A stretch of 42,715 nt of DNA from assembly GCA_023248025.1 (NCBI GenBank), contig JAHFFI010000001.1, forward strand, positions 1-42,715. Reading direction: 5' to 3'. Below, in pieces: positions 5,924-26,062 of the stretch. A program made the translations under genes and the position numbers. Source of the stretch: Candidatus Omnitrophota bacterium. Lineage in GTDB: Bacteria > Omnitrophota > Gorgyraeia > 2-02-FULL-51-18. The notes beneath the pieces were generated by a model. The model was not told the origin of the DNA. It saw nothing but the letters and a program-made list of their open reading frames with translations, and made no database searches. Every line of letters starts with the position of its first letter. Positions within the stretch are counted from its first letter, which is position 1.

Positions 5924-5956
5924 AACGCCTCGCTTCCGATTTGGAGGCGAGGCGTT
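5924..5956 (+). other. strong stem-loop (14-nt arms with 13 paired, 5-nt loop), immediately followed by TATAAT at 5959-5964
   Basis: AACGCCTCGCTTCC-GATTT-GGAGGCGAGGCGTT. It lies between DR2 and the HNH-like/DUF4145/SIR2 operon. Confidence 0.5.
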
Positions 5957-6018
5957 GTTATAATAAGAGTTAACGTGTCCCTGCGGGACGGGGTGTCCGG
6001 TAAATCCGAGGATAAGTT

Positions 6019-6816: not shown

Positions 6817-6818
6817 AA

Positions 6819-10147: not shown

Positions 10148-10209
10148 TTTCCCCTATAGAGAATCAAGCGCTTGCCCTGATTTTGCCATGACAGTTGTTG
10201 GCATAACAT
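10148..10209 (+). promoter_or_regulatory. stress-module promoter copy A
   Basis: TTTCCCCTATAGAGAATCAAGCGCTTGCCCTGATT, then exactly 22 nt from CCTGAT (10176-10181) to TAACAT (10204-10209). Confidence 0.6.
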
Positions 10210-10247
10210 GACTAGGAGTATCGACAATAAGGAGTCCCCAGAAATTT

Positions 10248-11189
10248 ATGAAGAAAACGGTTTTAATTTTTACAATCATTCTTCTCTCCCTGGTGGGTTT
10301 GACCATTTTTCAGAATCAAATCCTAAAATCCGCGGTAGCAGAGGTTACCTCGAGAATTATCGGCGCGCCCGTGAAAGTAAAAACGCTTTCATTCAGTTTA
10401 CTAAAGGCCACCATAAGTATAACCGGATTTGAAATCGGTAACCCCGCCGGGTTTCCGAAAGGGATTCTCGCATCCATTCCTACCATTAAAGTTACGGTTG
10501 ACCGCTCGGCTTTATTTAAGGGAAAGATCCACATCCTTATGGCAGAAATCGACTTAAAAGAGTTGGGGCTTATCAAAAATAAAGACGGACTTCTGAATGT
10601 CGATTTTTTAAAGATAGTGAAACAACAGCGGGATGAGTTAAGAAACTCATCTACGCTCCCGATACAGATCGATTTGCTGACTCTGGGAATCGGAAAGATA
10701 GTTCGCAAAGATTATACCCGCGAGGGAGAACCGGCGGTGCAAGTCCACGAAATGAATATTCATAAAAGTTATCAAAACATTACTAGTGCCGAACAGCTTG
10801 TGACGCTGGTATTGGCGGAGCCGATGAAAGCGGCCGGGATTCAAATCGCTGCGATTTACGGAGCCACCCTGTTGACGGGTGTCTCGATCCTACCGGTAGC
10901 GGCTGTATTTACATTTACAGGAAAAGATAATGCTGAGCAAAGTGTGAAAGGAAGTTTTGAGCATGTGTATGCGATAAGTGAAAAAGTAATCAAGCGTATT
11001 GGGACGATCACCGGGCGAGATTCGGCCAGCGGTGAAATTAGGGCGAATATCAACGGGGCGAACGTGGTCCTTAATCTTCAGAAGCAAAAAGACAATGAAA
11101 CGGGGATAACGATTTCCGCCCGTAAGTTTATGTTCCCACAGCCGGATGTCGCCGGCGGAGTGCTGTATCAAATAGTGGAGAAACTCTAA
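10248..11189 (+). CDS. membrane-anchored or secreted hypothetical protein (N-terminus AsmA-like, C-terminus possibly DUF3568-like; both tentative)
   Basis: AAGGAG RBS at 10229-10234. N-terminal helix VLIFTIILLSLVGLTIF. Confidence 0.65.
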   Translation: MKKTVLIFTIILLSLVGLTIFQNQILKSAVAEVTSRIIGAPVKVKTLSFSLLKATISITGFEIGNPAGFPKGILASIPTIKVTVDRSALFKGKIHILMAEIDLKELGLIKNKDGLLNVDFLKIVKQQRDELRNSSTLPIQIDLLTLGIGKIVRKDYTREGEPAVQVHEMNIHKSYQNITSAEQLVTLVLAEPMKAAGIQIAAIYGATLLTGVSILPVAAVFTFTGKDNAEQSVKGSFEHVYAISEKVIKRIGTITGRDSASGEIRANINGANVVLNLQKQKDNETGITISARKFMFPQPDVAGGVLYQIVEKL

Positions 11190-11191
11190 AA

Positions 11192-13018
11192 ATGCGTATT
11201 CACAGCACCGCAATGCACAAAGAAAACAAGGAGAAATATTGCATGGGGGCTATGCCCGGCGCAAGGGGCGTTACCTTTCGCGTATGGGCGCCTCATGCCG
11301 AAAAGGTTTACGTGACCGGAACCTTCAATGACTGGAACAAGACTTCGGCTCCTCTAGTTAGAGAGGAGAACGATTACTGGTCGATGGATGTGTCTCAAGC
11401 CAAAACAGGGGATGAATACAGATACCTGCTTGACAGCCCCAAGGGCCCACTCTCTCGCATTGACCCTTACGCCAGAAAGGTGACCAGTTCGATCGGCAAT
11501 GGAGTTATCTATGATCCCAAAGCTTTCGATTGGGGTAACCATAACTTTCATATAGCCACGGGGAATGAACTTGTTATTTACGAGATGCACGTTGGCACCT
11601 TTAATGTAAAAAAAGAAGGGCGGCCGGGCACGTTCGAAAGTGCGATGGAAAAATTGCCATATCTTCAAGAACTGGGTATCAATGCATTGGAAGTGATGCC
11701 GATCGCGGAGTTTTCTGGCGATTTTTCGTGGGGCTACAATCCGTCACACCTATTTGCCGTTGCGAGTATTTACGGGGGGCCGGATGCCCTTAAGCTTTTT
11801 GTCAAAGCGGCCCACGAGCATGGTATCGCTGTCATCATAGATGTCGTTTACAACCACTTGGGTCCAACCGATCTTGATTTGTGGCAGTTTGACGGTTGGA
11901 GCGAAAATGATAAGGGAGGAATTTACTTTTACAATGATCATCGATCGCAAACACCCTGGGGCGAGACGCGTCCCGATTATGGTCGGGGGGAGGTGCGGCA
12001 ATATCTGTGCGATAACGCCCTGATGTGGTTTGAGGAGTATCGCGTCGACGGCTTACGGTGGGACATGACAAGCTATATCAAAAGTATTGACGGTGATGTG
12101 GGAAATTCTGCGAATGATATTCCCGAAGGTTGGAGCTTGATGCAATGGATTAATGATGAGATCCGACAACTGTTTCCCGGCAAGATCAGCATCGGCGAAA
12201 GTATGAGAAATAACCCGTGGGTCACTAAAGATGTCGGAGCAGGTGGCGCAGGGTTCAATGCACAATGGGACGCCGAATTTGTTCACCCTGTTCGCCAGGC
12301 CGTCATCTTACTTGATGATAACCTCCGCGATTTGGGGGCAGTCAGTAAAGCGCTCGAGCATCGTTACGATTTAGACGTTTTCAAGCGGATTATTTATACC
12401 GAGTCGCATGACGAGGTCGCCAATGGTCGAGCCCGCGTGCCAGAGGAGATCTGGCCCGGCAAAGTGGACAGCTGGTTTTCCAAGAAACGCTCCACGTTGG
12501 GCGGCGCCCTTGTTCTTACTTCACCCGGCATCCCGATGATCTTTGAAGGGCAAGAGCTACTAGAAGATCGCTGGTTCCAGGATAAAGTCCCGATCGACTG
12601 GTCCCGAGTTAAGGGCGAACACGGTATTCTCGAAATGTACCGGGATCTGATCGCCCTACGGCGCAATCTATCGGGTGTGACGCGAGGGTTGTGCGGTCAA
12701 AATACCCAACTCTATCATTTTGACGATGGGGCCAAGGTTATCGCTTTCCACCGCTGGGACAAACAGGGCCCAGCCGATAGCGTTGTTGTAGTGGTGAATA
12801 TGATGAATCAAAACCGCGATGATTATGTTATCGGATTTCCGCGGGCCGGCATGTGGAAAACACGATTTAACAGCGACTCCTATAGCTATGCGCCAAATTT
12901 TGCAAATCATCTCACCCCTGATGTTGCGGTTCGTGAGGAAAAAATCGATGGGCTGCCTTGCTCGGGCAAGATCAGCATCGGCCCATACACGGTAGTGATT
13001 TTTTCGCAAGATGAATAG
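11192..13018 (+). CDS. GH13 alpha-glucan branching-enzyme-like protein (short GlgB type); likely true start at ATG 11243
   Basis: CBM48-like VTFRVWAPHAEKVYVTGTFNDWN. GH13 regions IIDVVYNHLGP, VDGLRWDMTSY, ISIGES, YTESHDEVANG. AAGGAG lies 9 nt before 11243. Confidence 0.85.
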   Translation: MRIHSTAMHKENKEKYCMGAMPGARGVTFRVWAPHAEKVYVTGTFNDWNKTSAPLVREENDYWSMDVSQAKTGDEYRYLLDSPKGPLSRIDPYARKVTSSIGNGVIYDPKAFDWGNHNFHIATGNELVIYEMHVGTFNVKKEGRPGTFESAMEKLPYLQELGINALEVMPIAEFSGDFSWGYNPSHLFAVASIYGGPDALKLFVKAAHEHGIAVIIDVVYNHLGPTDLDLWQFDGWSENDKGGIYFYNDHRSQTPWGETRPDYGRGEVRQYLCDNALMWFEEYRVDGLRWDMTSYIKSIDGDVGNSANDIPEGWSLMQWINDEIRQLFPGKISIGESMRNNPWVTKDVGAGGAGFNAQWDAEFVHPVRQAVILLDDNLRDLGAVSKALEHRYDLDVFKRIIYTESHDEVANGRARVPEEIWPGKVDSWFSKKRSTLGGALVLTSPGIPMIFEGQELLEDRWFQDKVPIDWSRVKGEHGILEMYRDLIALRRNLSGVTRGLCGQNTQLYHFDDGAKVIAFHRWDKQGPADSVVVVVNMMNQNRDDYVIGFPRAGMWKTRFNSDSYSYAPNFANHLTPDVAVREEKIDGLPCSGKISIGPYTVVIFSQDE

Positions 13019-13658
13019 GGCCTTATTCGAACAAATATTGAATAACGTTGCGTCTTTGGGTTCTATTGCGCCTTTAGCGTTTGTTCTGATTTATGCCATC
13101 GGGACGGTATTTTTTGTCCCAACGGCTATCTTTGCCCTCGCGGCGGGCGCCTTGTTTAGTTTACCTATGGGGTTTGTGGTTGCTTTAGTTTCTTCCCTGG
13201 CAGTTTCCTCCGGTGGTTTTTGGGCGGGGCGATATCTCTCGAGAGGATGGATAGTAATAAATGCTACTTCGAATAAAAAGATACAAGCTCTTGATAGCTT
13301 GGTTGCCGAAAAAGGCTGGAAGATCGTACTGCTTTTACGGCTCTCGGCTATTTTGCCGTTCACATTTCTGAACTACGGTCTTGGTCTCAGCAAGATCAGT
13401 TATAAGCATTTTATTTTAGCTTCCTCGATAGGTATGATTCCGGGGACGTTTGTCTATGTTTATTTGGGATCCTTGGCGGGCAAAATGGTCTTCGAAATAA
13501 ATTTCATGAAAAAATCCCACGTCGAATGGGCGATGATCGCTTTAGGTTTGGCGGCAACGCTCGTGATGGCCGTTTATTCGACATGGGTCGTAAAAAAAGC
13601 CTTTCAAACTCAAAAAATAAATTTTTCAGACGTAATAGAGGCGGAATTTCCCCGATAG
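13011..13658 (+). CDS. TVP38/TMEM64 (DedA-related) family membrane protein
   Basis: VPTAIFALAAGALFS...GRYLSRG and multiple TM segments. Overlaps the upstream gene by 8 nt. Confidence 0.8.
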   Translation: MNRALFEQILNNVASLGSIAPLAFVLIYAIGTVFFVPTAIFALAAGALFSLPMGFVVALVSSLAVSSGGFWAGRYLSRGWIVINATSNKKIQALDSLVAEKGWKIVLLLRLSAILPFTFLNYGLGLSKISYKHFILASSIGMIPGTFVYVYLGSLAGKMVFEINFMKKSHVEWAMIALGLAATLVMAVYSTWVVKKAFQTQKINFSDVIEAEFPR

Positions 13659-13708
13659 AAAATCAAGCGCTTGCCCTGATTACGTAATATTCACACTTGA
13701 TCTACGAT
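13647..13708 (+). promoter_or_regulatory. stress-module promoter copy B
   Basis: TTTCCCCGATAGAAAATCAAGCGCTTGCCCTGATT, then 22 nt from CCTGAT (13675-13680) to TACGAT (13703-13708). It overlaps the last codons of the TVP38 gene. Confidence 0.65.
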
Positions 13709-13763
13709 GTCCGTGTAGGGAAACAAAGAATATTGAAATCAGAATCTAAAAAAGGGAGCTATT

Positions 13764-13919
13764 ATGAGAAATATATTACTCGTTCTGTTGGTACTTTTAT
13801 TGATAGGAGCTTTTCCGGCTTGGCCTTATAGCATGCATTGGGGATATGCGCCGAGCGGTCTCCTCTCTGTGCTTTTTATTGTTTTAATTGTACTTGCCGT
13901 CACCGGCCGTCTGTCATAA
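13764..13919 (+). CDS. DUF3309-like small membrane protein (51 aa; below the ORF-track cutoff)
   Basis: MRNILLVLLVLLLIGAFPAWPYSMHWGYAPSGLLSVLFIVLIVLAVTGRLS carries the WPYS..WGY.PSG signature. GGGAG RBS upstream. Confidence 0.8.
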   Translation: MRNILLVLLVLLLIGAFPAWPYSMHWGYAPSGLLSVLFIVLIVLAVTGRLS

Positions 13920-13970
13920 AAAGGAAGACTTTGGATGGCGTTCTGTAATCGGTAATGGAGGAGGAATGAA

Positions 13971-14246
13971 ATGACGCGTATTAATCAATTGAGAATTTCT
14001 TGGGCCGTTGTTTTGGCCACCGCATTGATTGCGGGTACGGGCTGCCGCCAGCAAAAGGCGGATATCCGCGTTGTAGGCAAAGCCACCGACGGGATCAGAA
14101 CGCCAGGTGCTTCTTCGTCCGCCGGAGGTCCTGAGATGAGGGTAGTGACCGGCGAACCTGTGATGAAGTCCGATGGTGGAGGAGCAACAGACAATACTAC
14201 TGCGGAGGATAAACTCGGTGCCGTGGCCGTCAAGGTGCAATATTGA
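13971..14246 (+). CDS. putative lipoprotein
   Basis: GGAGGAGG RBS. Signal peptide with lipobox LIAGTGC. Low-complexity mature part. Confidence 0.55.
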   Translation: MTRINQLRISWAVVLATALIAGTGCRQQKADIRVVGKATDGIRTPGASSSAGGPEMRVVTGEPVMKSDGGGATDNTTAEDKLGAVAVKVQY

Positions 14247-14261
14247 CAGTATAATTTTCAC

Positions 14262-14787
14262 ATGAGCGAGCATCACAACAAGTCCCTGTGCGAACTCTAC
14301 CCAAGGCGATGGGATATCGTGCCTTTGATCCTGATGTCGCTGGGGCTATTATGTTACGGCGCTGTTTCTGCCGATTATTAAATTTAAAACACTTTTTTTA
14401 TGGACGGATACATTTTCTGTTATCACGGGTATTGAGAGTCTGAAGGAAAACGGTTATTTATTCCTAGCCGGCTTGTTATTCGTTTTTTCAGTCCTATTTC
14501 CATTCACAAAACTTCTTGCGTTGCTTTTAATTTGGTTCCTGAAAATGGATGAGAAGCAAAGACAAAGGCTTTTGTATTGGCTTGGAATTTTGGGAAAATG
14601 GTCGATGATGGATGTGTTCGTGGTGGCCATTACGGTTGTATTGGTTAAAGCGGGGGGTCTTGTGAATGCCGAGCCGCAAAGAGGCATCTACGTTTTTGGT
14701 GCTGCGGTGTTATCATCAATGATCGTAACTATGCTATTTGACAGCATCGCGGCCAAAAGCGGTCACACTTTCCAACCGACTTCTTAA
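14262..14787 (+). pseudogene. PqiA-family (paraquat-inducible protein A-like) membrane protein with a 1-nt frameshift at the T run 14365-14367
   Basis: Frame A gives MSEHHNKSLCELYPRRWDIVPLILMSLGLLCYGAV, then stop at 14379-14381. The +1 frame continues LPIIKFKTLFLWTDTFSVITGIESLKENGYLFLAGLLFVFSVLFPFTKLL... to 14787. Confidence 0.65.
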
Positions 14788-14829
14788 TCATCGTGATCAA
14801 TATTTCTCAAGCCCTCTCGGATATAGGCA

Positions 14830-14891
14830 TTTCCCCGATAGAAAATTAAGCGCTTACCCTGATTTCGCAATATTCATACTTAATCTAAGAT
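14830..14891 (+). promoter_or_regulatory. stress-module promoter copy C
   Basis: TTTCCCCGATAGAAAATTAAGCGCTTACCCTGATT, then 22 nt from CCTGAT (14858-14863) to TAAGAT (14886-14891). Confidence 0.65.
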
Positions 14892-14927
14892 GTCCCTGTG
14901 GGTAATAAAAATGAAGAAAAGGAGTTT

Positions 14928-15344
14928 ATGAAAAAATTTCTAATTATAATTTTAGCAACTCAAGCAATAGGGCTCGCCGGTTGCGCCAGTACGCCACGGT
15001 CTCGCACGGTTTATCAATATGGCGCCGCGCCTGGGAATAATTCTCAGGATGAATATAATAAGAAGATCATTAAGCAGGGCCTTCTGGGAGCTGCCACAGG
15101 CGCTATCGCCGCGGAAGCTTCCGGTGGCAAAGCCGGAACAGGGGCTTTAATCGGCGCGGGCACGAATATCATCGGAGGAGCTCTCTTCGACGTCCTCACG
15201 ACCCCACAACAACAACCTCAACAGGTGCAGTATGCGCCCTACGTGACCCAATGGAATCAGCAAAATCCGAACACAAACAGAATCGTTCGGAAGTTTGATT
15301 CCAATGGCAATGTGATCTCCGAAGAAGTGTTTACAAGAAACTGA
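14928..15344 (+). CDS. glycine-zipper lipoprotein (the ORF-track start at 14898 is probably too far upstream)
   Basis: AAGGAG RBS then ATG 14928. Lipobox LAGC. Gly-zipper GLLGAATGAIAAEASGGKAGTGALIGAGTNIIGGAL. Paralog at 25605-25925. Confidence 0.75.
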   Translation: MKKFLIIILATQAIGLAGCASTPRSRTVYQYGAAPGNNSQDEYNKKIIKQGLLGAATGAIAAEASGGKAGTGALIGAGTNIIGGALFDVLTTPQQQPQQVQYAPYVTQWNQQNPNTNRIVRKFDSNGNVISEEVFTRN

Positions 15345-15377
15345 ACATTATTTCAAAAAAATAAGGGGAACTAAGGA

Positions 15378-15647
15378 ATGAATAAATTACGAGTTTTGTT
15401 AATGAGTTTTGCTTTGGCCCTGGGACTTTCGATTCCTTGCTTCGCAGACCAAGTCCAAGGCTTGATAGAATCCATCGACCCGTCAAACAACTCAATCCTC
15501 ATCAAAGATCCCGTGAGCGGTCAGGGGAAAGTTGTCCATATTCACCCCAAGGTGATCGCGGAAGTAAAAAAAGGTTCCGTAGTCAAAGCGACTCTTAAAT
15601 CCGGGAGTGATGATGCGGACACCCTTGAAGTCCTGGTTGCCCGTTGA
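15378..15647 (+). CDS. small secreted protein, one copy of the repeat unit seen three times in 27001-27798
   Basis: Signal peptide MSFALALGLSIPCFA, then GLIESIDPSNNSILIKDPVSGQGKVVHIHPKVIAEVKKGSVVKA. Confidence 0.65.
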   Translation: MNKLRVLLMSFALALGLSIPCFADQVQGLIESIDPSNNSILIKDPVSGQGKVVHIHPKVIAEVKKGSVVKATLKSGSDDADTLEVLVAR

Positions 15648-15696
15648 CTCCTTAATTGGAAAATCTTTCTGAAGAGATGTTTAGCGCGGAGAAAAC

Positions 15697-17979
15697 GTGA
15701 TTTGGAAGAAGTGGCAATGGCGTTTATGGAGTTTTGTTGTCAGGTTCGGCGCGGTCGGTGAAGGTTTTCCTGACCCTGTCCTGCTGTTAACCAGTCTCAG
15801 ACGTTTTGCCCAGCCTTCCGAGCTGACCGCCCCCAAAGAACTTCTTCGTGCCGGCGCGATCATGCAGGCCAGAGGCCTGATCAACAGCCAAGCCATTCAG
15901 CATAATATGGATTGGGTGTGGCCGTATTGGGTCGAACGTCAGTTTGACCCCAGCGATGAATCATTTCTTCCCCGCGCGTTTAATTTATCACACTTAAATC
16001 TTACACACAGAAACTGGACAGCGGTCGGGGTTCCAGACTCTACCGAATTATCTCTAGTAGACCCGCGGGGACTCGTCACTCCTTATTTCGATGAATGGTC
16101 TCTTGCCCCGTGGGTGGTTACGCGGGAGGGTCTCCCTTTAATAGTCGCATCTCGACTTAAGGTGATTCGGCAGGAATTTATAATCCAGGGAAATCCTCAG
16201 GTTCAAACGACTGCAGAGCACGGGGGTGTCAGCCTCCGGTCACGTGTGGAATCTTATCTGGACGATGCCGTGACCGTTTGCCGAATAAAATTATCCGTAT
16301 TCTCGCCCGACGGCGGCTGGTTAGCCGTGTCGCTCAGGCCTTACAATCCCGAGGGGGTTAGCTTTATCCATAAGATAGCGCTCTTAAAGAGCCGCCGCGG
16401 ATGGAAAGTGGACGGACACGCTTTTATCCACTTTGACTCAAGACCGGATAGAACCAATTTTTCACGGTATTGGGAGGGTGATGTTTTTGCCAAGCTTCCT
16501 CTGGCGTCTAATGAGGAGGAGATTGAGTGCAGTGTCGGCATGGCGACAGCAGCCGCTCTTTTCGAGCTTAAGCCGAATGAAATGCGGGAAGTAACAGTTT
16601 CCGTACCGCTTAAAAAATGTTTTGATGTCGTTCCTGCCGCGCGCCCGGAATTTCTCCCAGCCGAAAAATGGAACGAAAATTTAAACCGTTTGTGTAAGTT
16701 GGATATTCCCGATAAGCAGTTTCAATTTCTTTATGATGCCGCGATTAGGTCCCTCATTCTACATTCCCCGCTGGATGTTTATCCAGGGCCTTATACCTAT
16801 AAGCGTTTTTGGTTCCGTGACGCCGCTTTTATACTTCACGCCATGCTGTGTGTAGGAATGAGTGAGAGAGCTGAAAAAGTTATCGACCGGTTCCCATCGC
16901 GCCAGACGGCCGGCGGATATTTTTTATCCCAAGAGGGGGAGTGGGATTCCAACGGAGAAGCGTTGTGGATCATGCGCCGCTTTTGCGAGCTCACAGGAAA
17001 AAAACCAAATCGAAAGTGGCGAAGCCCTGTTTATCGCGCGACGGCATGGTTGAAGGCCAAAAGGATCAGCAAAAAAGAAAGTCCTTATTTTGGACTGCTG
17101 CCTATTGGTTTTAGCGCCGAACATCTCGGGCCCAACGATTATTATTATTGGGATGATTTTTGGGGCGTTGCCGGATTCCAGGCAAGCGCCTATCTGGCCG
17201 GGCAATTCGGAGACAGTGAGCTCGTCGATGAGTTTTCAAATGAAGCTTCTGAGTTTTTGTCGTGTATTGAAAAAAGTCTCAAGCTGACGCACGGCCAGAC
17301 GGGCAATCAATGCATGCCGGCTTCACCTCATAGAAGAATGGATGCCGGGGCTATCGGATCGATCGCCGCGGGGTACCCGCTGCAGCTTTTTGCTTCCAAC
17401 GACGCAAGACTGGTGGATACGGCGGAGTTCCTTTTTAAGAAATGCTTTTTCGAGGGAGGATTTTATCAGGAGATCAGTCATTCGGGGATCAATCCTTATC
17501 TGACCCTGCATATCGCCCAAGTTTTTTTGAGAGCCGGAGATCCTCGTTTTTTTGACCTGATGAACGCCATCGCATCCTTAGCTTCACCCACAGGCCAATG
17601 GCCCGAGGCGATCCACCCGAGGACAAAAGGCGGGTGTATGGGCGATGGACAGCATATATGGGCCGCAGCCGAATGGATTTTAATGATCCGGAATTGTTTT
17701 GTGCGGGAAGAAGAAATGGATGGAATGCTCATTTTATGTTCAGGGGTTCCTGACTCATGGATCCCTGAGGGCTCATCCATATCCTTTGGACCGACGCTCA
17801 CAAGTTTTGGCCCAGTTAGCATTCGAATAAAATCCCAACACGAAAAAATCGAGATACAGTGGTCCGGCGATTGGTATGGCGATAAGAAACCATCAATCGA
17901 AATCCGTCTTCTGAATTTCGCTCACATCCAAGCAAAGCCGGGGGAAAATTCAATCGAGATCCTGCGAGGAGCTGCATGA
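15697..17979 (+). CDS. GH15-like (six-hairpin glucoamylase/trehalase-type) glycoside hydrolase; GTG start uncertain
   Basis: YKRFWFRDAAFILHAM, GEWDSNGEALWIM, YYYWDDFWGVAG. GGAG lies 5 nt before GTG 15697. Confidence 0.75.
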   Translation: MIWKKWQWRLWSFVVRFGAVGEGFPDPVLLLTSLRRFAQPSELTAPKELLRAGAIMQARGLINSQAIQHNMDWVWPYWVERQFDPSDESFLPRAFNLSHLNLTHRNWTAVGVPDSTELSLVDPRGLVTPYFDEWSLAPWVVTREGLPLIVASRLKVIRQEFIIQGNPQVQTTAEHGGVSLRSRVESYLDDAVTVCRIKLSVFSPDGGWLAVSLRPYNPEGVSFIHKIALLKSRRGWKVDGHAFIHFDSRPDRTNFSRYWEGDVFAKLPLASNEEEIECSVGMATAAALFELKPNEMREVTVSVPLKKCFDVVPAARPEFLPAEKWNENLNRLCKLDIPDKQFQFLYDAAIRSLILHSPLDVYPGPYTYKRFWFRDAAFILHAMLCVGMSERAEKVIDRFPSRQTAGGYFLSQEGEWDSNGEALWIMRRFCELTGKKPNRKWRSPVYRATAWLKAKRISKKESPYFGLLPIGFSAEHLGPNDYYYWDDFWGVAGFQASAYLAGQFGDSELVDEFSNEASEFLSCIEKSLKLTHGQTGNQCMPASPHRRMDAGAIGSIAAGYPLQLFASNDARLVDTAEFLFKKCFFEGGFYQEISHSGINPYLTLHIAQVFLRAGDPRFFDLMNAIASLASPTGQWPEAIHPRTKGGCMGDGQHIWAAAEWILMIRNCFVREEEMDGMLILCSGVPDSWIPEGSSISFGPTLTSFGPVSIRIKSQHEKIEIQWSGDWYGDKKPSIEIRLLNFAHIQAKPGENSIEILRGAA

Positions 17980-19259
17980 ATATATTGATGATGTCCAATA
18001 CTTATAAGCCGTTGGTGGGTGGAATTGAAAAATCTATAGAATCATTTACCCAGTGGTTCAGGAAAGAAGGGCATCGTGTTATTGTTGTTGCACCGGAATT
18101 CGTGAATATGAAGGTAGAGCAAGATGTGATTCGCATTCCAGCCATTCAAAATGCCGGCGGCTCTCAATTTTCCATACAACTGCCTATGCCGGGTGTTTTG
18201 GATGAGGCGCTCGGTGATTTTAAACCTGATATTGTGCATGCGCATCATCCTTTTCTTGTAGGCGACACGGCTCTTCGAATAGCCCGAAAACATCACGTGC
18301 CGCTTGTGTACACGCATCACACACTATTCGAGCAGAACACGCATTATCTGCCTGGAAATACAAAAGGCCTCAAGCGATTCGTGATAGAACTCTCCACAGG
18401 GTACGCCAATTTAGCGGACCTGGTTTTCGCGCCCAGCGAAAGTGTTCAAGCGCTTATTAAAGAGCGGGGTGTTACGACTCCGATCAAGGTCGTCCCGACG
18501 GGTGTGGATATCCAGCGTTTTAGCAAAGGAGCCAGGACAAAATTTAGAGATGCTTTAAAAATTCCTTTGGATAGTTTTGTCGTGGGCCATGTGGGGAGAC
18601 TTGCTCCTGAAAAAAACCTAGATTTTTTGGCAAGGGCCGTAGCCGCCTTCTTAAAACTGGAGCCTAACGCGAGATTTTTGGTCGGTGGAAACGGACCTTC
18701 GGAAGAAAATATTAAAGCAGCTTGTGAACGCCAGAACGTGGGGGATCGCCTTTATATGGCGGGTGTACTTAAGGGTAAAGATCTTGTAAGTGCATACCAC
18801 GCGATGGATGTTTTTGTTTTTGCTTCTCAAAGTGAAACACAAGGGTTGGTGATCACAGAGGCCATGTGTGCGGGGCTTCCTGTTGTGGCTGTCGATGCCC
18901 CCGGCGTAAGAGAGATTGTTGTGGATAAAATAAACGGACGTCTGCTATCTTCAGAAAATCTTGAGGGTTTTGTTTCGGCGCTTTCATGGATGGGCAAGAT
19001 CTCATCATCAAAAATTAAAAAAATGAAAGAAGCTAGCAGACGTACAGCCAAACACTTTTCCTTAAAAATAAGTGCCCAGAATGCCATGGATGCCTATAAG
19101 CAGCTTCTTTTAACAGACGGCGCACGGGATAAGATCCATGATGACAGTGCTTGGGAGAAGGCAGGACAGCTTATTCAAACTCAATGGGATCTTACAAAAA
19201 ATATCACGAAAGCAGCCGGAGCCTATCTCAATAATGAAACTCATGAAGTTAGCGTCTAA
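17976..19259 (+). CDS. GT4-family glycosyltransferase
   Basis: N-terminal MSNTYKPLVGGIEKS. C-terminal E-x7-E region VFVFASQSETQGLVITEAMCAGLPVVAV. ATGA overlap with the upstream gene. Confidence 0.88.
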   Translation: MNILMMSNTYKPLVGGIEKSIESFTQWFRKEGHRVIVVAPEFVNMKVEQDVIRIPAIQNAGGSQFSIQLPMPGVLDEALGDFKPDIVHAHHPFLVGDTALRIARKHHVPLVYTHHTLFEQNTHYLPGNTKGLKRFVIELSTGYANLADLVFAPSESVQALIKERGVTTPIKVVPTGVDIQRFSKGARTKFRDALKIPLDSFVVGHVGRLAPEKNLDFLARAVAAFLKLEPNARFLVGGNGPSEENIKAACERQNVGDRLYMAGVLKGKDLVSAYHAMDVFVFASQSETQGLVITEAMCAGLPVVAVDAPGVREIVVDKINGRLLSSENLEGFVSALSWMGKISSSKIKKMKEASRRTAKHFSLKISAQNAMDAYKQLLLTDGARDKIHDDSAWEKAGQLIQTQWDLTKNITKAAGAYLNNETHEVSV

Positions 19260-19334
19260 CAGGTATACACGATGATTGTCAGAATAGAAGCATTTATAAG
19301 AAAACTTTGGCACGTGTTTAGTCCTGAGGAGGTG

Positions 19335-21665
19335 ATGGCCCGTCTTTTAAATATTCCTAAAACAAAAGATATGGCCGCAAAGCCCGGCTTGGTCATGATC
19401 CAAATCGATGGATTAGGATTGACCCAGTTTGAGCGTGCGATTCAAAAAGGGAGCATGCCTTTTTTAGCGCGCTTATGGAAAAAAGAAGGTTATATAAACC
19501 GCCGTCATTACACAGGTCTTCCTTCCAATACGCCGGCGGTTCAAGCACAGCTTTTTTATGGCGTCAAAAATTGCGTTCCCGCATTTAGTTTCAAGGATAG
19601 CCAAAGCGGGGAGGTTTTTAATATGTTTAATCCGGAATCTGCCTCTATCATAGAAGCTCGATTGAAAGATAAGGGCGTCCCTCTTTTGAAAGGGGGTAGT
19701 GCCTATGGCAATATTTTTACGGGTGGAGCCAACGAAGCTCATTTCTGCGTTTCTTCGGTCGGATGGGGAAGTTTGCTGAGTTTGTTGAAAACAGCCAGTC
19801 CATTAGGGATGCCCCTCGTTATTTTTCTAAATCTTCACATTTTTATCCGTGCTTTGTTTTTGATCCTGGTGGAATTTATCTTAGCCGTGGTCGATTCTAT
19901 CCGTGGCATTATATACGGAAAAAAATTCATGAGCGAAATAGGATATATCCCTCTCCGAGTGGCAGTTTGTGTTTTGCTAAGGGAGATTATCGGCGCGGGG
20001 GCGAAGATCGATATTGCCCGGGGGCTGCCGGTGATCCACATTAATCTGGCAGGGTATGATGAGCAAGCTCATCATCGAGGTTCCAAGTCCGCTTTTGCTC
20101 ACTGGTCTTTGAGAGGGATCGATGGCGCGATAGCGAAAGTATGGAAAGCAGCGCAAAGATCCCAACAGCGCCACTATGATGTTTTTGTCTATTCGGACCA
20201 TGGGCAGGAAGATACGATCAGTTACTACGAAGAGAACGGGCGGACAATCGATGAAGCCGTCAATGAGATTTTTAAAAAGCAGACCAGTTCCGGCTTATGG
20301 CGATTGGAGTTTAGCCAAGGATATCCATACTGGCGCGCTCACACCTTAAGAAACAGGCCGGAGAAAAAGCGGGAAGCCGGATCTTCACGGCCCGAAGCCA
20401 AAGAGAGAGATGCTGCACCCCGCGTCGTGGTTGCCGCGATGGGCAATGTGGGACTTATTTACCCGCCGCACCCGCTTTCCCCGGAGGAAAAAGAGGCGCT
20501 TGCCGGGGACCTGGTCTTGTCCGCCAAGGTCCCGTTCGTGATGACGAAGGACAGGCCCGGTCGGGCAATTGCCTGGAACACGCAGGGAAAATATATTTTC
20601 CCTGAAGAGGCTGATAAGGTCATCGAAGCGAGCCATCCTTTCTTTAAAGATGTGACTCATGATCTGGTCGAGCTTTGTCATCATCCGGACGCGGGCGAAC
20701 TTCTGATCTTTGGCTGGAGAAAAGGGTCCAAATCTCTTACTTTCCATGCAGAGCAGGGAAGCCATGCGGGGCCAGGGCCTGAAGAGACGAGTGGTTTTGC
20801 TTTGTTGCCTATGGGAGCGTTGGCACGATCTCTAAAAACAATTTCTACAAAAGATCTTCGTGACGCCGCTTTTCGTGCCCAGGAGCGTGGGGACGAGAAT
20901 ACCAGCGCTATCCCGGAGAGCCCGGACCATATGACCGATCCCCCTATTCTACGAATTATGACTTATAACGTTCATGCCTGCATGGGCCGAGATGGAAAAA
21001 TTTCTCCCAATCGAATAGCCGGGATCATTGCCAGACATGATCCGGATATTGTTGCCTTGCAGGAGCTTGGGTCGAATGAACACGCTCATCAAGCAGAAGT
21101 TATCGCTAAGAAATTGGCTATGGCATGTCATTTTCATCCTTGTCTTTCGATGAAGAAAGGCCAGCGTGGGAACGCTATTTTCAGCAAGTTTCCTATGCGG
21201 CTTGTTCGGAATGGGAGTCTGCCTAAACTTTCTCGAATACCTTTTCTTGAACCACGCGGAGCTTTATGGGTGGAAATCGACGTGCGCGGACTCAAGATAC
21301 AAGTTCTTACCACCCACCTTAGCCTTTCTTCTCGAGAACGTCTTTTACAAATGAAGGCTCTTTTAGGGCCGGACTGGTTGGGAAACCCCACTTGCCAGGA
21401 TCCTGTCATTTTTTGTGGGGATTTCAATGCTTTGGCGCAGTCAAAGATCTTCAAAAATATCGGGCCTGTCCTTAAAAGTACTCATTTTGAATTAAATAGC
21501 CAACGCCCTCTAAAAACACTTCCAAGTTTTTATCCGCTCGGACTTGTCGATCATATTTTTGTGGGGCCTAGGTTTAAAACGATCAACAGAGAGGTTCCTA
21601 AAACGGAGTTGGAAAGAATGTCGTCCGATCATCTGCCCCTGATTGTCGACGTTCAAGTTGGATAG
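19335..21665 (+). CDS. fusion protein: alkaline-phosphatase-superfamily (nucleotide pyrophosphatase/phosphodiesterase-like) domain + endonuclease/exonuclease/phosphatase (EEP) domain
   Basis: GAGGAGG RBS before ATG 19335 (ORF track starts at 19272). IQIDGLG...LPSNTPAVQAQLFYG...VYSDHGQ. Internal hydrophobic stretch LVIFLNLHIFIRALFLILVEFILAVV. C-terminal MTYNVH...VALQEL...GDFN...SDHLPL. Confidence 0.8.
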   Translation: MARLLNIPKTKDMAAKPGLVMIQIDGLGLTQFERAIQKGSMPFLARLWKKEGYINRRHYTGLPSNTPAVQAQLFYGVKNCVPAFSFKDSQSGEVFNMFNPESASIIEARLKDKGVPLLKGGSAYGNIFTGGANEAHFCVSSVGWGSLLSLLKTASPLGMPLVIFLNLHIFIRALFLILVEFILAVVDSIRGIIYGKKFMSEIGYIPLRVAVCVLLREIIGAGAKIDIARGLPVIHINLAGYDEQAHHRGSKSAFAHWSLRGIDGAIAKVWKAAQRSQQRHYDVFVYSDHGQEDTISYYEENGRTIDEAVNEIFKKQTSSGLWRLEFSQGYPYWRAHTLRNRPEKKREAGSSRPEAKERDAAPRVVVAAMGNVGLIYPPHPLSPEEKEALAGDLVLSAKVPFVMTKDRPGRAIAWNTQGKYIFPEEADKVIEASHPFFKDVTHDLVELCHHPDAGELLIFGWRKGSKSLTFHAEQGSHAGPGPEETSGFALLPMGALARSLKTISTKDLRDAAFRAQERGDENTSAIPESPDHMTDPPILRIMTYNVHACMGRDGKISPNRIAGIIARHDPDIVALQELGSNEHAHQAEVIAKKLAMACHFHPCLSMKKGQRGNAIFSKFPMRLVRNGSLPKLSRIPFLEPRGALWVEIDVRGLKIQVLTTHLSLSSRERLLQMKALLGPDWLGNPTCQDPVIFCGDFNALAQSKIFKNIGPVLKSTHFELNSQRPLKTLPSFYPLGLVDHIFVGPRFKTINREVPKTELERMSSDHLPLIVDVQVG

Positions 21666-21667
21666 GT

Positions 21668-21729
21668 TATCCCCGATAGAAAGTTCAGGCGTTGCCCTGA
21701 TACCGAAAGAATCGAGTTTGTTCTATGAT
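21668..21729 (+). promoter_or_regulatory. stress-module promoter copy D
   Basis: TATCCCCGATAGAAAGTTCAGGCGTTGCCCTGATA, then 22 nt from CCTGAT (21696-21701) to TATGAT (21724-21729). Confidence 0.6.
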
Positions 21730-21762
21730 GAAGATAGAGGAAATTCAAAAAAGGAGCTAACC

Positions 21763-21960
21763 ATGAATAAAAGTCTTGGAATTGTTTTTTTGGTGTTGGG
21801 AGCGTGTTTATTGGTTTATGGATTCAACGCCGCGGATTCTGTCGCGTCGGATTTTTCCAGATTCTTTAATGGAACGCCCACCAATAGGTCACTCATGCTA
21901 CTCATCTTGGGGGGCGTTTTGGCGGTTTCCGGGGCTTCATTTTTAACTAAAAAAGACTAG
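21763..21960 (+). CDS. DUF3185-like small membrane protein (65 aa; the ORF-track start at 21643 is too far upstream)
   Basis: AAGGAG RBS. MNKSLGIVFLVLGACLLVYGFNAADSVASDFSRFFNGTPTNRSLMLLILGGVLAVSGASFL. Confidence 0.75.
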   Translation: MNKSLGIVFLVLGACLLVYGFNAADSVASDFSRFFNGTPTNRSLMLLILGGVLAVSGASFLTKKD

Positions 21961-22003
21961 GGTTAACCCTAGTCAACAAACAGTACTCAAAGGAGAAATA
22001 ATC

Positions 22004-22399
22004 ATGAGAAAGTTCTTGTTAAACCATAAACTTGTTACGATACTGGCGTTGTGGACGATCTTTATCAGCATTCCGCCTTCCAACGCTTTTGCTATGCCCA
22101 GCGCGTCCGTTACGGCATTTGACGTCGTTTCTTTAAGGCAGGCCCAGATGAGTAAGATCATGTCTGAGTTGTCCCGACCCGAAGCGAGAGCGCATTTGAT
22201 GCTGATGGGAATCAGTCAAAATGAACTAAAAGCTAAGCTGACTCAACTGGACGATGCGCAGCTGGCCAGCGTGGCGAAGAAGGCGGACGCGGTGAAAGTC
22301 GCCGGAGATGCGGGATTAGGTATTATTATCACACTTTTGGTGATTGCGATATTGGCTATCATTTTCATCAGATTGTCTAACCACCAGAGAATTAACTAA
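22004..22399 (+). CDS. small signal-peptide/C-terminal-TM protein resembling the PA2779 family
   Basis: AAGGAG RBS and signal peptide. RQAQMSKIMSELSRPEARAHLMLMGISQNELKAKLTQLDDAQLASVA, then TM GIIITLLVIAILAIIFI. Confidence 0.55.
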   Translation: MRKFLLNHKLVTILALWTIFISIPPSNAFAMPSASVTAFDVVSLRQAQMSKIMSELSRPEARAHLMLMGISQNELKAKLTQLDDAQLASVAKKADAVKVAGDAGLGIIITLLVIAILAIIFIRLSNHQRIN

Positions 22400-22406
22400 C
22401 GCAAGA

Positions 22407-23480
22407 ATGATGATCAAGGGCAGGATGATAAGATTGGTTCTTTTATCATCCTGCTCATTTTTTTTGGCCGGTTGTGCGACCTCATTCACTTATCGTGTAA
22501 ATCCCCCTGTGGCACTCGAAACCCACGAATCTTTTTATCTTGAGAACGTCCCCTCTGTAGCACAAAAGACTTATCAGTGCGGCCCCGCGGCACTGGAGTC
22601 TGTGAGCCGTTATTGGGGAAGAAGCGCCGATGCGGACTCCATAAGCAAGGCACTCTACAAATCAAAGACAGGCGGAGTTTTTAATTTTAGTCTCATGCAG
22701 TACGCGAAAACGATCGGTTTTTGGAGCGAGATTCATAAGGCGCAGAGCGAAGAGGATCTGAAGCAGTGGCTTCGCAAGGGAGTTCCTCCTATCGTGATGC
22801 TCGACTCGGGCACCCTATGGGCCCACACCTATCATTTTGTCGTGCTCAAAGGTTTTGATGACGCTTTGAAGATTTTTTACGCGAATACGGGTGTTCTTGA
22901 GACACAAGCCATCGATTACGGAGAGTTCGGGCGGCGATGGAAAAAAGCGGACACTTGGAGCTTGATCGTTTCACCGCCGGAAAAAGTGGATTGGGAATTA
23001 GACGAAACGCAGTCCATTGATATTGCCCTAATTTTTGAAAAAAATGGAAACCTAAACCAGGCTGAGCAATGGGTGGAGTCAGTTTTGAGAAAAAATCCTG
23101 AAAGTCTCGCGGCAAAATTTAACCTTGCCAATATCTATAGCAAATCCAATCGATCGGAGCAGGCTAAAACTATTTATCAAGAACTTTTGAATAAAAATCC
23201 AAGTCGATCGGAGATAAGCAACAATTTGGCCTGGATCTATTATGAAGAAGGCCGTTACGAAGACGCGTTAAACGTGATCTTGGCAGCTTTTAAAAATGGC
23301 GCTCAAAAAAATTATGACATTCTGGACACCATGGGAATGATTGACTGCAAATTGGGCCGGACTGAAGAAGCACAGCATGCTTTTTCGGAAGCCATGAGCA
23401 AGGTTCCGACCGAAGATGTGCAAACGCTTAAGCTCATACAGGATCATAGAGCTGCATGTAAACAGGAAATTGGGCAATAA
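22407..23480 (+). CDS. C39-like cysteine peptidase lipoprotein with C-terminal TPRs (PA2778-family-like)
   Basis: Lipobox FFLAGC. Catalytic-type QCGPAAL and HFVVLKG. TPR repeats AEQWVESVLRKNPES..., AKTIYQELLNKNPS... Confidence 0.75.
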   Translation: MMIKGRMIRLVLLSSCSFFLAGCATSFTYRVNPPVALETHESFYLENVPSVAQKTYQCGPAALESVSRYWGRSADADSISKALYKSKTGGVFNFSLMQYAKTIGFWSEIHKAQSEEDLKQWLRKGVPPIVMLDSGTLWAHTYHFVVLKGFDDALKIFYANTGVLETQAIDYGEFGRRWKKADTWSLIVSPPEKVDWELDETQSIDIALIFEKNGNLNQAEQWVESVLRKNPESLAAKFNLANIYSKSNRSEQAKTIYQELLNKNPSRSEISNNLAWIYYEEGRYEDALNVILAAFKNGAQKNYDILDTMGMIDCKLGRTEEAQHAFSEAMSKVPTEDVQTLKLIQDHRAACKQEIGQ

Positions 23481-23489
23481 AAAATGGCT

Positions 23490-23551
23490 TTTCCCTGATA
23501 GAAAGTTTAGTAGTTCTCCTGATATCGAAAGTACCGTTCTCAGTCTATGAT
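23490..23551 (+). promoter_or_regulatory. stress-module promoter copy E (degenerate centre), upstream of the kinase/regulator operon
   Basis: TTTCCCTGATAGAAAGTTTAGTAGTTCTCCTGATA, then 22 nt from CCTGAT (23518-23523) to TATGAT (23546-23551). Confidence 0.55.
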
Positions 23552-23629
23552 ATCTATAGCTTCGAGAAGGCGGCAACTTAATCAAAACTTCCGATAGGGA
23601 TACCCATCAATCAGGAGTAGAATAAGACC

Positions 23630-24745
23630 ATGAAACGTAGCAGGTTAAAGAAACCGGTATCGATTAAACTAAAGCGCTTATCCAAGCCGGCGCAGGTGCC
23701 CGACGTTTCACCCATCCGGTCATCTGAAATCCGGTACCGTCGGCTATTCGAATCCGCTCAAGACGGTATTTTGATCCTAGACGCTGGCACGGGCCGCATC
23801 ACCGATGTGAATCCGTTCCTAGTTAAGTTATTAGGCATTACTCAGAAAAAACTTTTGGGTAAGAGACTTTGGGAAATCGGCCTGTTTCACGATGTAGAAA
23901 AGTCGAAAGGCGCATTCAGAGAATTGCAGCGGAACGGCTATATCCGGTACGAAGATTTGCCCCTTGAGACGAAGGACGGACGTTACATTGATGTGGAGTT
24001 TGTGAGCAACGTCTACTTGGCCAATGGCATTAAAGTGATCCAATGCAACATCCGTGACATTACTGAGCGTAAACACTTAGAAGTGGAAAAAGCTATTTTG
24101 GAAACTATCGAAGAAGAGCAGCGGCGGATCGGACAGGATCTGCATGACGGTTTGTGCCAACAGTTGGCGGGTATCGCGCTCATCGCAAAGGCTTTGGCGG
24201 TTAAGCTGTCTGCCAAGGCGCCTGACGAATCGGCTGAGGCCTTCGAAATTGCCGAGTTGATCAGCCAGGCTATTGAACAAACACGTGATCTGGCCAGAGG
24301 ACTCTCACCGGTGGAAGTTGAGGTGCCCGGTCTTGCGGCTGCATTGGAAAAATTTTCCGTTACGACTGCGCGGCTTTATAAAATATCCTGTGTATTTGTT
24401 CATAATGAAAGCATAAAGCTTAAGCACGAGTATTCGCCGATACTGGCTACCCACCTTTACCGGATTGTCCAGGAAGCGGTGAACAATGCCATTCAGCACG
24501 GGAAGGCCAGACGGGTGATAATCACTCTTGCGGTTACTAAAAAAATTGGGTTGTTGACAATTCAGGATAATGGAATTGGATTTCAGGCTAAAGATGAAGA
24601 CGCGCCGGGCCTGGGTTTGCGCAGTATGCGCTATCGCGGCCGGATGATTGGCGCGCGGTTTATGGTCGGCCGAGACACGGGCGGGGGAACGATCGTTTCC
24701 TGCTCATTCCCCTATTCTGACGAACGGGAGTTTAGCAAAAAATGA
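23630..24745 (+). CDS. cytoplasmic PAS sensor histidine kinase (HisKA_3 / NarX-LiaS type)
   Basis: PAS RYRRLFESAQDGILILD, H-box RIGQDLHDGLCQQLAGI, N-box QEAVNNAIQHG, G-boxes DNGIGF and GLGLRSM. No TM segments. Confidence 0.9.
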   Translation: MKRSRLKKPVSIKLKRLSKPAQVPDVSPIRSSEIRYRRLFESAQDGILILDAGTGRITDVNPFLVKLLGITQKKLLGKRLWEIGLFHDVEKSKGAFRELQRNGYIRYEDLPLETKDGRYIDVEFVSNVYLANGIKVIQCNIRDITERKHLEVEKAILETIEEEQRRIGQDLHDGLCQQLAGIALIAKALAVKLSAKAPDESAEAFEIAELISQAIEQTRDLARGLSPVEVEVPGLAAALEKFSVTTARLYKISCVFVHNESIKLKHEYSPILATHLYRIVQEAVNNAIQHGKARRVIITLAVTKKIGLLTIQDNGIGFQAKDEDAPGLGLRSMRYRGRMIGARFMVGRDTGGGTIVSCSFPYSDEREFSKK

Positions 24746-25425
24746 AAAAAATTAAAAAAAATTCTCCGGTAAAAAGCAAGAAAGTGAGGATTTTGCTCGT
24801 CGATGACCATCCGATCATGCGTCGAGGACTGGCCGAACTGATCAATCTGGAGAAAGACCTTGTGGTTTGTGGAGAGGCCGATAGCATACACACGGCTTTG
24901 GAACTTATAAAGCGCCATGAGCCCGATGTGGCGCTGGTGGATCTTTCGCTGAAAAATGAAAGCGGCCTTGAACTTATCAAGGATATTCACGCGCGTTACC
25001 CAAAGGTTTTGGTGCTGGTGTTGTCCATGCACGATGAGTTATTCTATGCCGAACGCGTGCTTCGAGCCGGAGCCAAAGGTTATGTTATGAAGCAGCAAGC
25101 GACAGATCTGGTTTTAGTGGCGATCCGCCGCATTCTCGGCGGCGAAGTTTATTTAAGTGATTTCATGTCATCGAAGGTTTTGCGAAACTTCACGAGTAAA
25201 AAAACAGAGAAAGCGGGTTCTTCCGTTGACCAGCTGAGTGACCGGGAACTGGAAGTATTCCGGCTGATCGGAACGGGTCTGGGAACGCGCCAGATCGCTG
25301 AAAGGCTCTCTCGCAGCGTGAAGACTGTGGAAACCTACCGTGAGCATATCAAACTGAAACTGGATCTTAAGGATTCGTCCGAACTGGTTCAGAACGCCAT
25401 CCAATGGTCGCAAAGTAATTCCTAG
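24742..25425 (+). CDS. NarL/FixJ (LuxR-type HTH) response regulator
   Basis: REC ILLVDDHP...DVALVDLSL. HTH LSDRELEVFRLIGTGLGTRQIAERLSRSVKTVETYREHI. ATGA overlap with the kinase gene. Confidence 0.93.
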   Translation: MKKIKKNSPVKSKKVRILLVDDHPIMRRGLAELINLEKDLVVCGEADSIHTALELIKRHEPDVALVDLSLKNESGLELIKDIHARYPKVLVLVLSMHDELFYAERVLRAGAKGYVMKQQATDLVLVAIRRILGGEVYLSDFMSSKVLRNFTSKKTEKAGSSVDQLSDRELEVFRLIGTGLGTRQIAERLSRSVKTVETYREHIKLKLDLKDSSELVQNAIQWSQSNS

Positions 25426-25459
25426 TACTCACAAAACCCTCCCTATAACGCGGTAGGTA

Positions 25460-25522
25460 TTTCCCCCTATAAAAGGTCAAGCACTTGGCCTGATTTCGCT
25501 TCAAACGCCGTTGTCTTATCCT
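25460..25522 (+). promoter_or_regulatory. stress-module promoter copy F
   Basis: TTTCCCCCTATAAAAGGTCAAGCACTTGGCCTGATT, then 22 nt from CCTGAT (25489-25494) to TATCCT (25517-25522). An extra CCCTATAA half-site lies at about 25441. Confidence 0.55.
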
Positions 25523-25604
25523 AAGGGCATGGAACTTTTCTCGGTCCTCGAACCGGCAACGGCTTACGTGGCGGCGGAGGCGGTTTAAACATAAAAGGAA
25601 AAAT

Positions 25605-25925: not shown

Positions 25926-26062
25926 TTAGCGTTTATCAAACCTGCAGGGTTTGCGGGGTTCGCGTCCGGGCAGGTTTTACAAACTGTGACGGCTGTTATT
26001 ACAAAATTGATAAGGCCGAAACAGAAGAGATTAATCATTTAGAAAAAAGGAGACATAACTCG

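Follow-up and report, generated by a model that had tools for sequence, protein, structure and literature searches.

A recurrent tandem-site promoter module of uncultured bacteria most likely marks an autoregulated NarL-type two-component regulon

Introduction

Why should one and the same 62-bp element stand ahead of six consecutive, co-directional gene units of a bacterial contig, each time with the same internal spacing? The question is raised by positions 1 to 42,715 of contig JAHFFI010000001.1 of a Candidatus Omnitrophota bacterium, a metagenome sequence (European Nucleotide Archive ERZ27296333); this whole stretch was analyzed and is referred to here as the window. A first, sequence-only reading of the window had described the six copies as a promoter module. 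Here, we follow up this reading, with support that is in silico throughout.

We find it likely that the modules are activator-dependent housekeeping-sigma promoters that would carry tandem dimer sites for a NarL/FixJ-family regulator encoded next to them, and that they form a regulon which includes the regulator's own operon. The architecture most likely marks the regulon of a NarL-type two-component system that controls its own operon and is carried by uncultured bacteria of the PVC (Planctomycetes-Verrucomicrobia-Chlamydiae) group. The regulon is undescribed; the mechanism is conventional.

Results

Six copies of one module in the window

The six copies, A to F, are all 62 bp long, lie on the + strand within 15 kb and start at 10148, 13647, 14830, 21668, 23490 and 25461. 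They share the block TTTCCCC(G/T)ATAGA..AG...TT..CCTGAT, in which the GAT/TAT cores of two heptamers, one distal and one proximal to the downstream gene, are 24 bp apart in every copy; CCTGAT is separated by 22 nt from a TAnnnT hexamer, again in all six. Copies A, C, E and F are intergenic, while copy B covers the last 12 nt of a DedA-type gene (stop 13658) and copy D starts 3 nt past the stop codon at 21665. A + strand gene lies downstream of each copy; the one after copy B, a 51-amino-acid DUF3309 open reading frame (ORF) at 13764-13919, falls below the 80-amino-acid limit of the supplied ORF list.

In module A (10148-10209), the distal heptamer CCCCTAT (10151-10157) and the proximal heptamer CCCTGAT (10175-10181) are followed by a -35-like TTTTGC (10181-10186) and a -10 hexamer TAACAT (10204-10209), with a predicted +1 at the G of position 10216. 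The two heptamers, the -10 and the predicted +1 lie at 13650-13656, 13674-13680, 13703-13708 (TACGAT) and 13715 in module B (13647-13708); at 14833-14839, 14857-14863, 14886-14891 (TAAGAT) and 14898 in module C (14830-14891); at 21671-21677, 21695-21701, 21724-21729 (TATGAT) and 21736 in module D (21668-21729); and at 23493-23499, 23517-23523, 23546-23551 (TATGAT) and 23558 in module E (23490-23551), the proposed autoregulatory copy. Copy F carries one extra C, which sets its aligned register to 25461-25522, with heptamers at 25464-25470 and 25488-25494 and the -10 TATCCT at 25517-25522; its predicted +1 is the A of an ATG at 25529.

A degenerate 31-mer, CCCYGATAGARARTNNAGNNNTTNNCCTGAT, allowed up to three mismatches, matched the six copies and nothing else in the window, and found no match in 100 dinucleotide shuffles. 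With a weight matrix trained solely on instances from other contigs, the six copies scored 42-66 bits, the rest of the window stayed below 8 bits and the top score of 20 shuffles was 4.6. Whole-module, distal-only and proximal-only matrices revealed no extra or weaker copies in the window above shuffle level. The sequence-only reading had reported six + strand copies, intergenic or at the 3' end of a gene and each ahead of a + strand gene, had judged them beyond chance, and had given the constant 22-nt distance from CCTGAT together with the six hexamers listed above. All of this holds, and only the register of copy F shifts, from 25460 to 25461.

Occurrence beyond the window

An exact-pattern scan with CCCYKATARARNNNNNAGNNNTTNNCCTGAT retrieved 15 loci from one-genome-per-species contigs and 56 from metagenome contigs (retrieved loci are denoted by L numbers), about a dozen of which are chance matches inside genes. 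The remaining loci agree in features that the pattern did not require, namely GG at -7/-6, TTT directly ahead of the first heptamer, a T that follows CCTGAT, TTG at module positions 47-49 and the TAnnnT hexamer. There were 69 unique exact-pattern instances, 54 of them also with TT upstream and TAnnnT 21-23 nt downstream. A weight-matrix scan of related genomes had been proposed along with the sequence-only reading; with such a rescan the set grew to 84 unique instances, a part of which have start codons at a fixed offset (see below). Named hosts are metagenome-assembled genomes of Omnitrophota, Planctomycetia, Phycisphaerae, Pirellulales and Lindowbacteria. As judged from these matches, the module is not peculiar to this locus and spans Omnitrophota, Planctomycetota and Lindowbacteria.

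We found no paper on the motif, or on any regulon or motif of Omnitrophota or Planctomycetes. Rfam, searched at gathering thresholds over the whole window, matched only a tRNA at 3917-3989, and the module is not a known RNA family. The motif had originally been called unrecognized and the regulon undescribed, with which both searches agree.

Pairwise identities among the six 62-mers range from 34 to 55 of 62 positions, the latter value being reached by B and C, which also share their spacer. This likeness suggests duplication and could point to a dispersed repeat, of the miniature inverted-repeat transposable element or repetitive extragenic palindromic type or arisen by recent promoter duplications, without shared regulation. 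We give this explanation hardly any weight. Orientation to the downstream gene is constant and the distance to leaderless start codons fixed; sequence information is unevenly distributed, with the heptamers and the -10 holding most of it; and no terminal repeats or Rfam family match were seen. Moreover, orthologous positions are conserved while flanks diverge. Modules recur across contigs after the regulator gene, after a gene for an EEP protein and before glycine-zipper and DUF3309 genes, the position of module D is kept in L007, L036, L047, L067 and L069, and in an alignment of kinase-upstream promoters from seven lineages conservation is limited to the operator block and the -10.

Core promoter and start site

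A TAnnnT hexamer follows CCTGAT by 21-23 nt in 77 of the 84 unique instances, by exactly 22 nt in 67, and is most often TATGAT. In 29 of these 77 instances an ATG stands exactly 6 nt past the hexamer, while any other offset between 0 and 20 is taken by 0-3 instances. Eighteen of the 29 ATGs begin ORFs of at least 50 amino acids, that is, leaderless genes, and their families are unrelated (hemerythrin-like, TPR lipoproteins, Ysc84, Transgly_assoc, PAP2 and others). The position of the ATG in these genes places +1, by indirect evidence, 7 nt after the hexamer, as expected for a housekeeping-sigma -10, and each of the six window copies has a purine at the predicted +1.

The -35 consensus is TTTCGC, and the window copies match TTGACA at only 2-4 of six positions. 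Such a weak -35 fits activator dependence. A canonical sigma-70 promoter, with a -35 near TTGACA 16-18 bp upstream of the -10, is absent from the six; a generic sigma-70 scan called none of the six modules, its total count lying below the shuffle mean and hence being uninformative. A weak -35 beside the proximal half-site and a start about 7 nt after the hexamer had both been anticipated in the sequence-only reading; the former is now borne out by the consensus, and the latter is in keeping with the leaderless ATGs.

Two further features of the core region were observed. A TTG lies 3 nt upstream of the -10, at module positions 47-49 or -18 to -16 (T 42, T 41 and G 38 of 54 instances; for example, 14880-14882 of the window), which is 2 nt too far upstream for a canonical extended -10 TG. 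In addition, the 22-nt spacers fall into three classes, AATATTCAcAcTtgATC in B and C (13681-13702 and 14864-14885), AyCGAAAGwAyCG in D and E (21702-21723 and 23524-23545) and TTCGCTktGAAAGCCGTTGTC in F (25495-25516), and each class is kept among orthologous promoters of other contigs. This conservation suggests either a second layer of control or shared ancestry.

Operator anatomy

The two half-sites had originally been described as direct repeats. Their 24-bp register stands, in all six copies, but they appear to be the right arms (CCCYKAT) of two imperfect inverted repeats, or dyads, with an ideal form ATCAGGG-N4-CCCTGAT. For the proximal right arm, complementarity peaks at centre 21-21.5, with 3.9 of 7 positions against a background of about 1.6; for the distal right arm, it peaks at centre -2 to -3, with 2.7 against 1.7. 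We take L050 to give the cleanest view of the operator unit and of its out-of-phase spacing. There, at 4029-4118, four 18-bp palindromes ATCAGGGnnnnCCCTGAT (three exact, one with a single mismatch) start at 4029, 4053, 4077 and 4101, in an exact 24-bp period, and are followed by TATAAT and a thioredoxin-like gene. Perfect dyads also occur in L049 and L046, and L076 carries four half-sites 24 bp apart.

A 10-bp palindrome between the heptamers is perfect in A and B (CAAGCGCTTG) and in C (TAAGCGCTTA) and degenerate in D-F, as first reported. Its standing as an independent conserved element did not survive comparison, as its centre is unconserved and GC-rich orthologs are without it; its outer positions, 14 and 23, covary modestly, and relatedness confounds this signal. 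In our interpretation, the CAAGCGCTTG palindrome is a lineage-specific form of the left arm of the proximal site.

Relative to the +1 set by the leaderless ATG, the site centres fall at about -43.5/-44 and -67/-67.5, 24 bp apart. The proximal right arm ends at -35, and the proximal site abuts the -35 element. Two other ways of reading the promoter were weighed.

First, an alternative sigma factor, for instance of the extracytoplasmic function type, might read the block directly, with CCCTGAT as a -35 and cTAnGATg as a -10. The unusually conserved -10 region (cTAtGATg), the extra TTG at -18 to -16 and the poor canonical -35 would suit such a factor. Spacers of the sigma-70 family measure 15-19 nt, however, and the 22-nt gap lies outside this range. 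The element is also duplicated 24 bp upstream, is dyad-symmetric and forms arrays of up to four palindromes, unlike a sigma element; no sigma gene recurs in the 50 loci compared below, and the hexamer fits the housekeeping TAnnnT. We therefore consider direct reading by another sigma factor very unlikely.

Second, the tandem sites might be repressor operators that block the -35, with induction by release, given that the proximal site abuts or overlaps the -35, where RNA polymerase could be occluded. Against this, promoters that match TTGACA as poorly as these normally need recruitment, and centres at about -43.5 and -67.5 agree with the arrangement from which BvgA and DevR activate transcription (PMC7250471, PMC3177182). 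Repression appears to us just as improbable as direct sigma recognition, and we retain activation from tandem sites as the preferred reading.

The adjacent kinase-regulator pair

Module E precedes an operon (23630-25425) for a two-component system. Its first gene (23630-24745, + strand) encodes a 371-amino-acid cytoplasmic sensor histidine kinase with Pfam domains PAS, HisKA_3 and HATPase_c; it has one PAS domain, a single cysteine in the PAS region and no GAF domain. The second (24742-25425, + strand) encodes a 227-amino-acid NarL/FixJ-family response regulator (Pfam Response_reg and GerE, a LuxR-type helix-turn-helix), and module F lies 36 nt past its stop codon. The closest solved structures to the regulator are NarL, DevR, VraR and DesR. 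The regulator is a generic member of its family; no named ortholog emerged, as every NCBIfam equivalog model scored far below its cut-off. Homologs share 68-75% identity in Omnitrophota/Omnitrophica, 67% in Lindowbacteria and 59-60% in Planctomycetota.

Among 50 non-redundant motif-retrieved loci (244 kb), the commonest shared ORF family was this regulator (12 loci), followed by the kinase (10 loci); no other regulator family and no sigma ORF family recurred. A module stands before the kinase operon and/or after the regulator stop in the window, L036, L033, L034, L015, L012/L035 (Lindowbacteria) and L014. Five contigs that were retrieved by regulator homology and not by the motif also carry modules (identity 68-77%, GC content 57-63%), namely L072 (69%, GC 62%; two modules, flanking the operon), L078 (72%, GC 62%; three modules), L079 (69%, GC 63%; three modules), L080 (68%, GC 57%; four modules, one before the kinase gene) and L077 (77%, GC 60%), whose diverged copies keep only the two heptamers and the 24-bp and 22-nt spacings. 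In L012, two modules stand back to back at 6340-6470, one directed at an Hsp20 gene and the other at the kinase-regulator operon, with a ATCAGGGAATTCCTGAT palindrome in between.

The promoter with its tandem operators might be real and its binder nonetheless encoded elsewhere, the kinase-regulator pair being merely one regulated member. The regulator is linked to the modules by co-location, clustered modules (six in 15 kb) will co-retrieve any gene of the island, and GT4 and glycine-zipper genes are found in nine loci each, against 12 for the regulator. Yet the regulator is the commonest neighbour and the only DNA-binding family among the recurrent ORF families and the island genes scanned. 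The kinase-regulator operon has modules directly at its flanks in 12 or more lineages, which reach down to 57% identity and differ widely in GC content, and the modules persist there where other island genes have been reshuffled. GGG/CCC-rich dyads also suit NarL-family regulators such as DevR and NreC. A binder encoded elsewhere thus seems unlikely to us, albeit less so than the other alternatives.

Several observations speak against the adjacent regulator acting through these sites as we propose. Its assignment is a genomic association, and because the modules cluster in one island, linkage accounts for part of the co-retrieval. Of the Planctomycetota homologs, which have about 60% identity, L073/L074 show no module and L076 has only a diverged four-site array; the module of L002 is directed away from its kinase operon. 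Left arms are poor in the window, so that the six copies themselves show weak dyad symmetry. The 24-bp period does not amount to whole helical turns, unlike the 22 bp of BvgA and the 21 bp of DevR. Finally, the model does not account for the conserved TTG (-18 to -16) or for the conserved spacers of each class.

On balance, we infer that the regulator is the binder and that it activates rather than represses. In the mechanism we propose, the PAS kinase (23630-24745) would phosphorylate the regulator (24742-25425), and a regulator dimer would bind each dyad. As with BvgA and DevR/DosR, the promoter-proximal dimer would recruit RNA polymerase. The system would activate its own operon through module E, as well as five neighbouring operons with general-stress, envelope and carbohydrate genes. 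The sequence-only reading had proposed activator-dependent, sigma70-type promoters of an undescribed regulon, with the adjacent LuxR-type regulator as a candidate binder. The position of the start site, the weak -35, the regulator as commonest neighbour and the modules around orthologous operons back this proposal on comparative grounds.

Genes downstream of the modules

Module A precedes genes for an AsmA/DUF748-like protein (10248-11189), a GH13 protein (11192-13018) and the DedA/VTT protein (13011-13658) whose 3' end underlies module B; module B itself is followed by the DUF3309 ORF. Between modules B and C lies a 104-amino-acid ORF (14473-14787) whose match to the PqiA profile, 156 positions long, is confined to positions 55-148; it is probably a truncated gene fragment. 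Downstream of module C lie a glycine-zipper lipoprotein (14928-15344), an 89-amino-acid secreted protein (15378-15647), a 760-amino-acid protein (15697-17979), GT4 (17976-19259) and a phosphodiesterase/EEP protein (19272-21665). Module D is followed by DUF3185 (21763-21960), DUF6627 (22004-22399) and C39-peptidase/TPR (22410-23480) genes, and module E by the kinase-regulator operon. Module F precedes a leaderless ORF of 19 amino acids (25529-25588), a glycine-zipper gene (25605-25925), Ysc84/SYLF (25910-26638) and Transgly_assoc (26695-26967). It probably also drives the genes that follow, for a rhodanese and an Fe/Mn superoxide dismutase.

The 19-amino-acid ORF (MELFSVLEPATAYVAAEAV) begins exactly at the predicted +1 of module F. 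It is what remains of a hemerythrin-like gene of 142-169 amino acids (MELxHLPVNR...), which L028, L034, L037 and L075 still carry in full at this position.

Across loci, the genes downstream of modules are of general-stress or envelope types. They include entericidin, DUF3309, DUF3185, glycine-zipper lipoproteins, Transgly_assoc, Ysc84, Hsp20, hemerythrin-like and TPR proteins and, further, EF-hand, PKD and GGDEF proteins, with superoxide dismutase nearby; thioredoxin-like and glyoxalase-type proteins also occur, under labels unconfirmed by family search. Neither in the window nor in the retrieved loci is any module followed by nar, nir or narT genes.

In L003 (3780-3960, - strand), L042, L043 and L046, loci of Planctomycetota type, the operator with a TAATAT hexamer precedes a conserved transcript of about 65 nt that ends in an intrinsic terminator (AAGCCCTTGCTTC...AAGCAAGGGCTTTTT) and has a fold z-score of -4.1. 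It has no significant Rfam match and no ORF, and we regard it as a candidate small RNA that the same regulator may control.

Two other regions of the window were noted. A protein with PAS and PP2C/SpoIIE-type phosphatase domains (RsbU-like) is encoded at 33335-34513, 8 kb past the island, and is followed by a TPR gene. Homologs of this TPR gene (about 42-53% identity) are leaderless and module-driven in L033, L059, L017 and L067; in the window, no module precedes it. At 3624-8559, a GIY-YIG ORF (3624-3866) and the tRNA (3917-3989) precede ORFs that are sparsely annotated or not annotated at all, among them DUF4145 (6819-7397) and a SIR2_2-like protein (7474-8559), and the region may be a small defence or integration islet beside the tRNA.

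Discussion

Omnitrophota and many Planctomycetota are uncultured, and we found no described Omnitrophota regulon or promoter architecture in the literature. The module provides a sequence handle for predicting a stress regulon straight from metagenomes, gives predicted start sites at single-base resolution and offers a candidate regulator-operator pair that is open to study in vitro without culturing the organism. The ATGs at its predicted start sites are evidence, at the level of sequence, that leaderless mRNAs are used in these lineages.

A bolder possibility, which we raise tentatively and regard as doubtful, is that the pair is a sigma-independent master regulator of the general stress response in Omnitrophota, Planctomycetota and Lindowbacteria, a counterpart of RpoS, SigB or EcfG, acting through out-of-phase arrays and, in some lineages, controlling a small RNA and many leaderless transcripts as well. 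If this were true, 24-bp out-of-phase arrays of up to four dimers would imply oligomerization on DNA unlike that of BvgA and DevR. The strict 24-bp period is in any case unusual for a NarL-family activator and may interest structural biologists.

How does the proposed system compare with known ones? [quoted passage not shown] The present system resembles the BvgA-controlled promoters Pfha and Pptx of Bordetella in combining a regulator with receiver and LuxR-type helix-turn-helix domains, a weak core promoter with an abutting proximal site and a regular array of inverted heptads for several dimers, dimer binding being a prediction in our case. The BvgA heptad TTTCCTA also resembles the TTTCCCC(T/G)AT of the modules. 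However, the period is 22 bp there and 24 bp here, the half-site consensus differs, and BvgS is a periplasmic Venus-flytrap hybrid kinase, whereas the window encodes a small cytoplasmic PAS kinase. The BvgA regulon comprises virulence genes, as opposed to the stress and envelope genes found here.

DevR depends on at least two palindromic boxes in tandem, which are centred at -42.5 and -63.5 and lie in helical phase (PMC3177182); contacts of DosR with sigma region 4 and with the alpha subunit have been described (PMC13486717). DevR/DosR of Mycobacterium tuberculosis is likewise a NarL-family regulator, whose structure 3c3w matches the window regulator with E = 5e-25; it too has a self-regulated operon and a stress-protein regulon, and an Hsp20 gene is a module target in L012. 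The Dev box is a 20-bp element of the GGGACT-TT-AGTCCC type. Its GGG and CCC are about 8 nt apart, with an in-phase spacing of 21 bp, compared to 3-4 nt and 24 bp in the modules. The kinases DevS and DosT use GAF domains, in contrast to the window kinase, whose sensor domain is of the PAS type and which carries no GAF domain.

In the oxygen-sensing NreBC system of Staphylococcus, the binding site of NreC is a GC-rich palindrome that lies ahead of the target operons (PMC8139620, PMC5694512), and the PAS domain of NreB has four cysteines that hold an oxygen-labile [4Fe-4S] cluster (PMC8139620). A cytoplasmic kinase with PAS and HisKA_3 domains is paired with a NarL-type regulator in both systems. 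The single cysteine of the window kinase PAS contrasts with the four of NreB; the module loci have no nitrate/nitrite genes and no NreA partner. The NreC box reportedly reads TAGGG-N4-CCCTA; in this form it would be very close to the ATAGGG/CCCTAT and ATCAGGG/CCCTGAT dyads found here, and the dyads TATAGGGGtttCCCCTATA (L046) and ATCAGGGnnnnCCCTGAT (L050) would resemble it.

The gene types downstream of the modules overlap strongly with those of the RpoS, SigB and EcfG regulons, in which entericidin, Transgly_assoc (YeaQ/YmgE type), glycine-zipper lipoproteins, Hsp20, superoxide dismutase and carbohydrate enzymes of the glycogen/trehalose type recur. Those regulons depend on a dedicated sigma factor, whereas here a two-component activator apparently acts on housekeeping-sigma promoters. 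The present system would work like BvgA, DevR and NreC but belongs to none of them, differing in half-site, period, kinase and targets.

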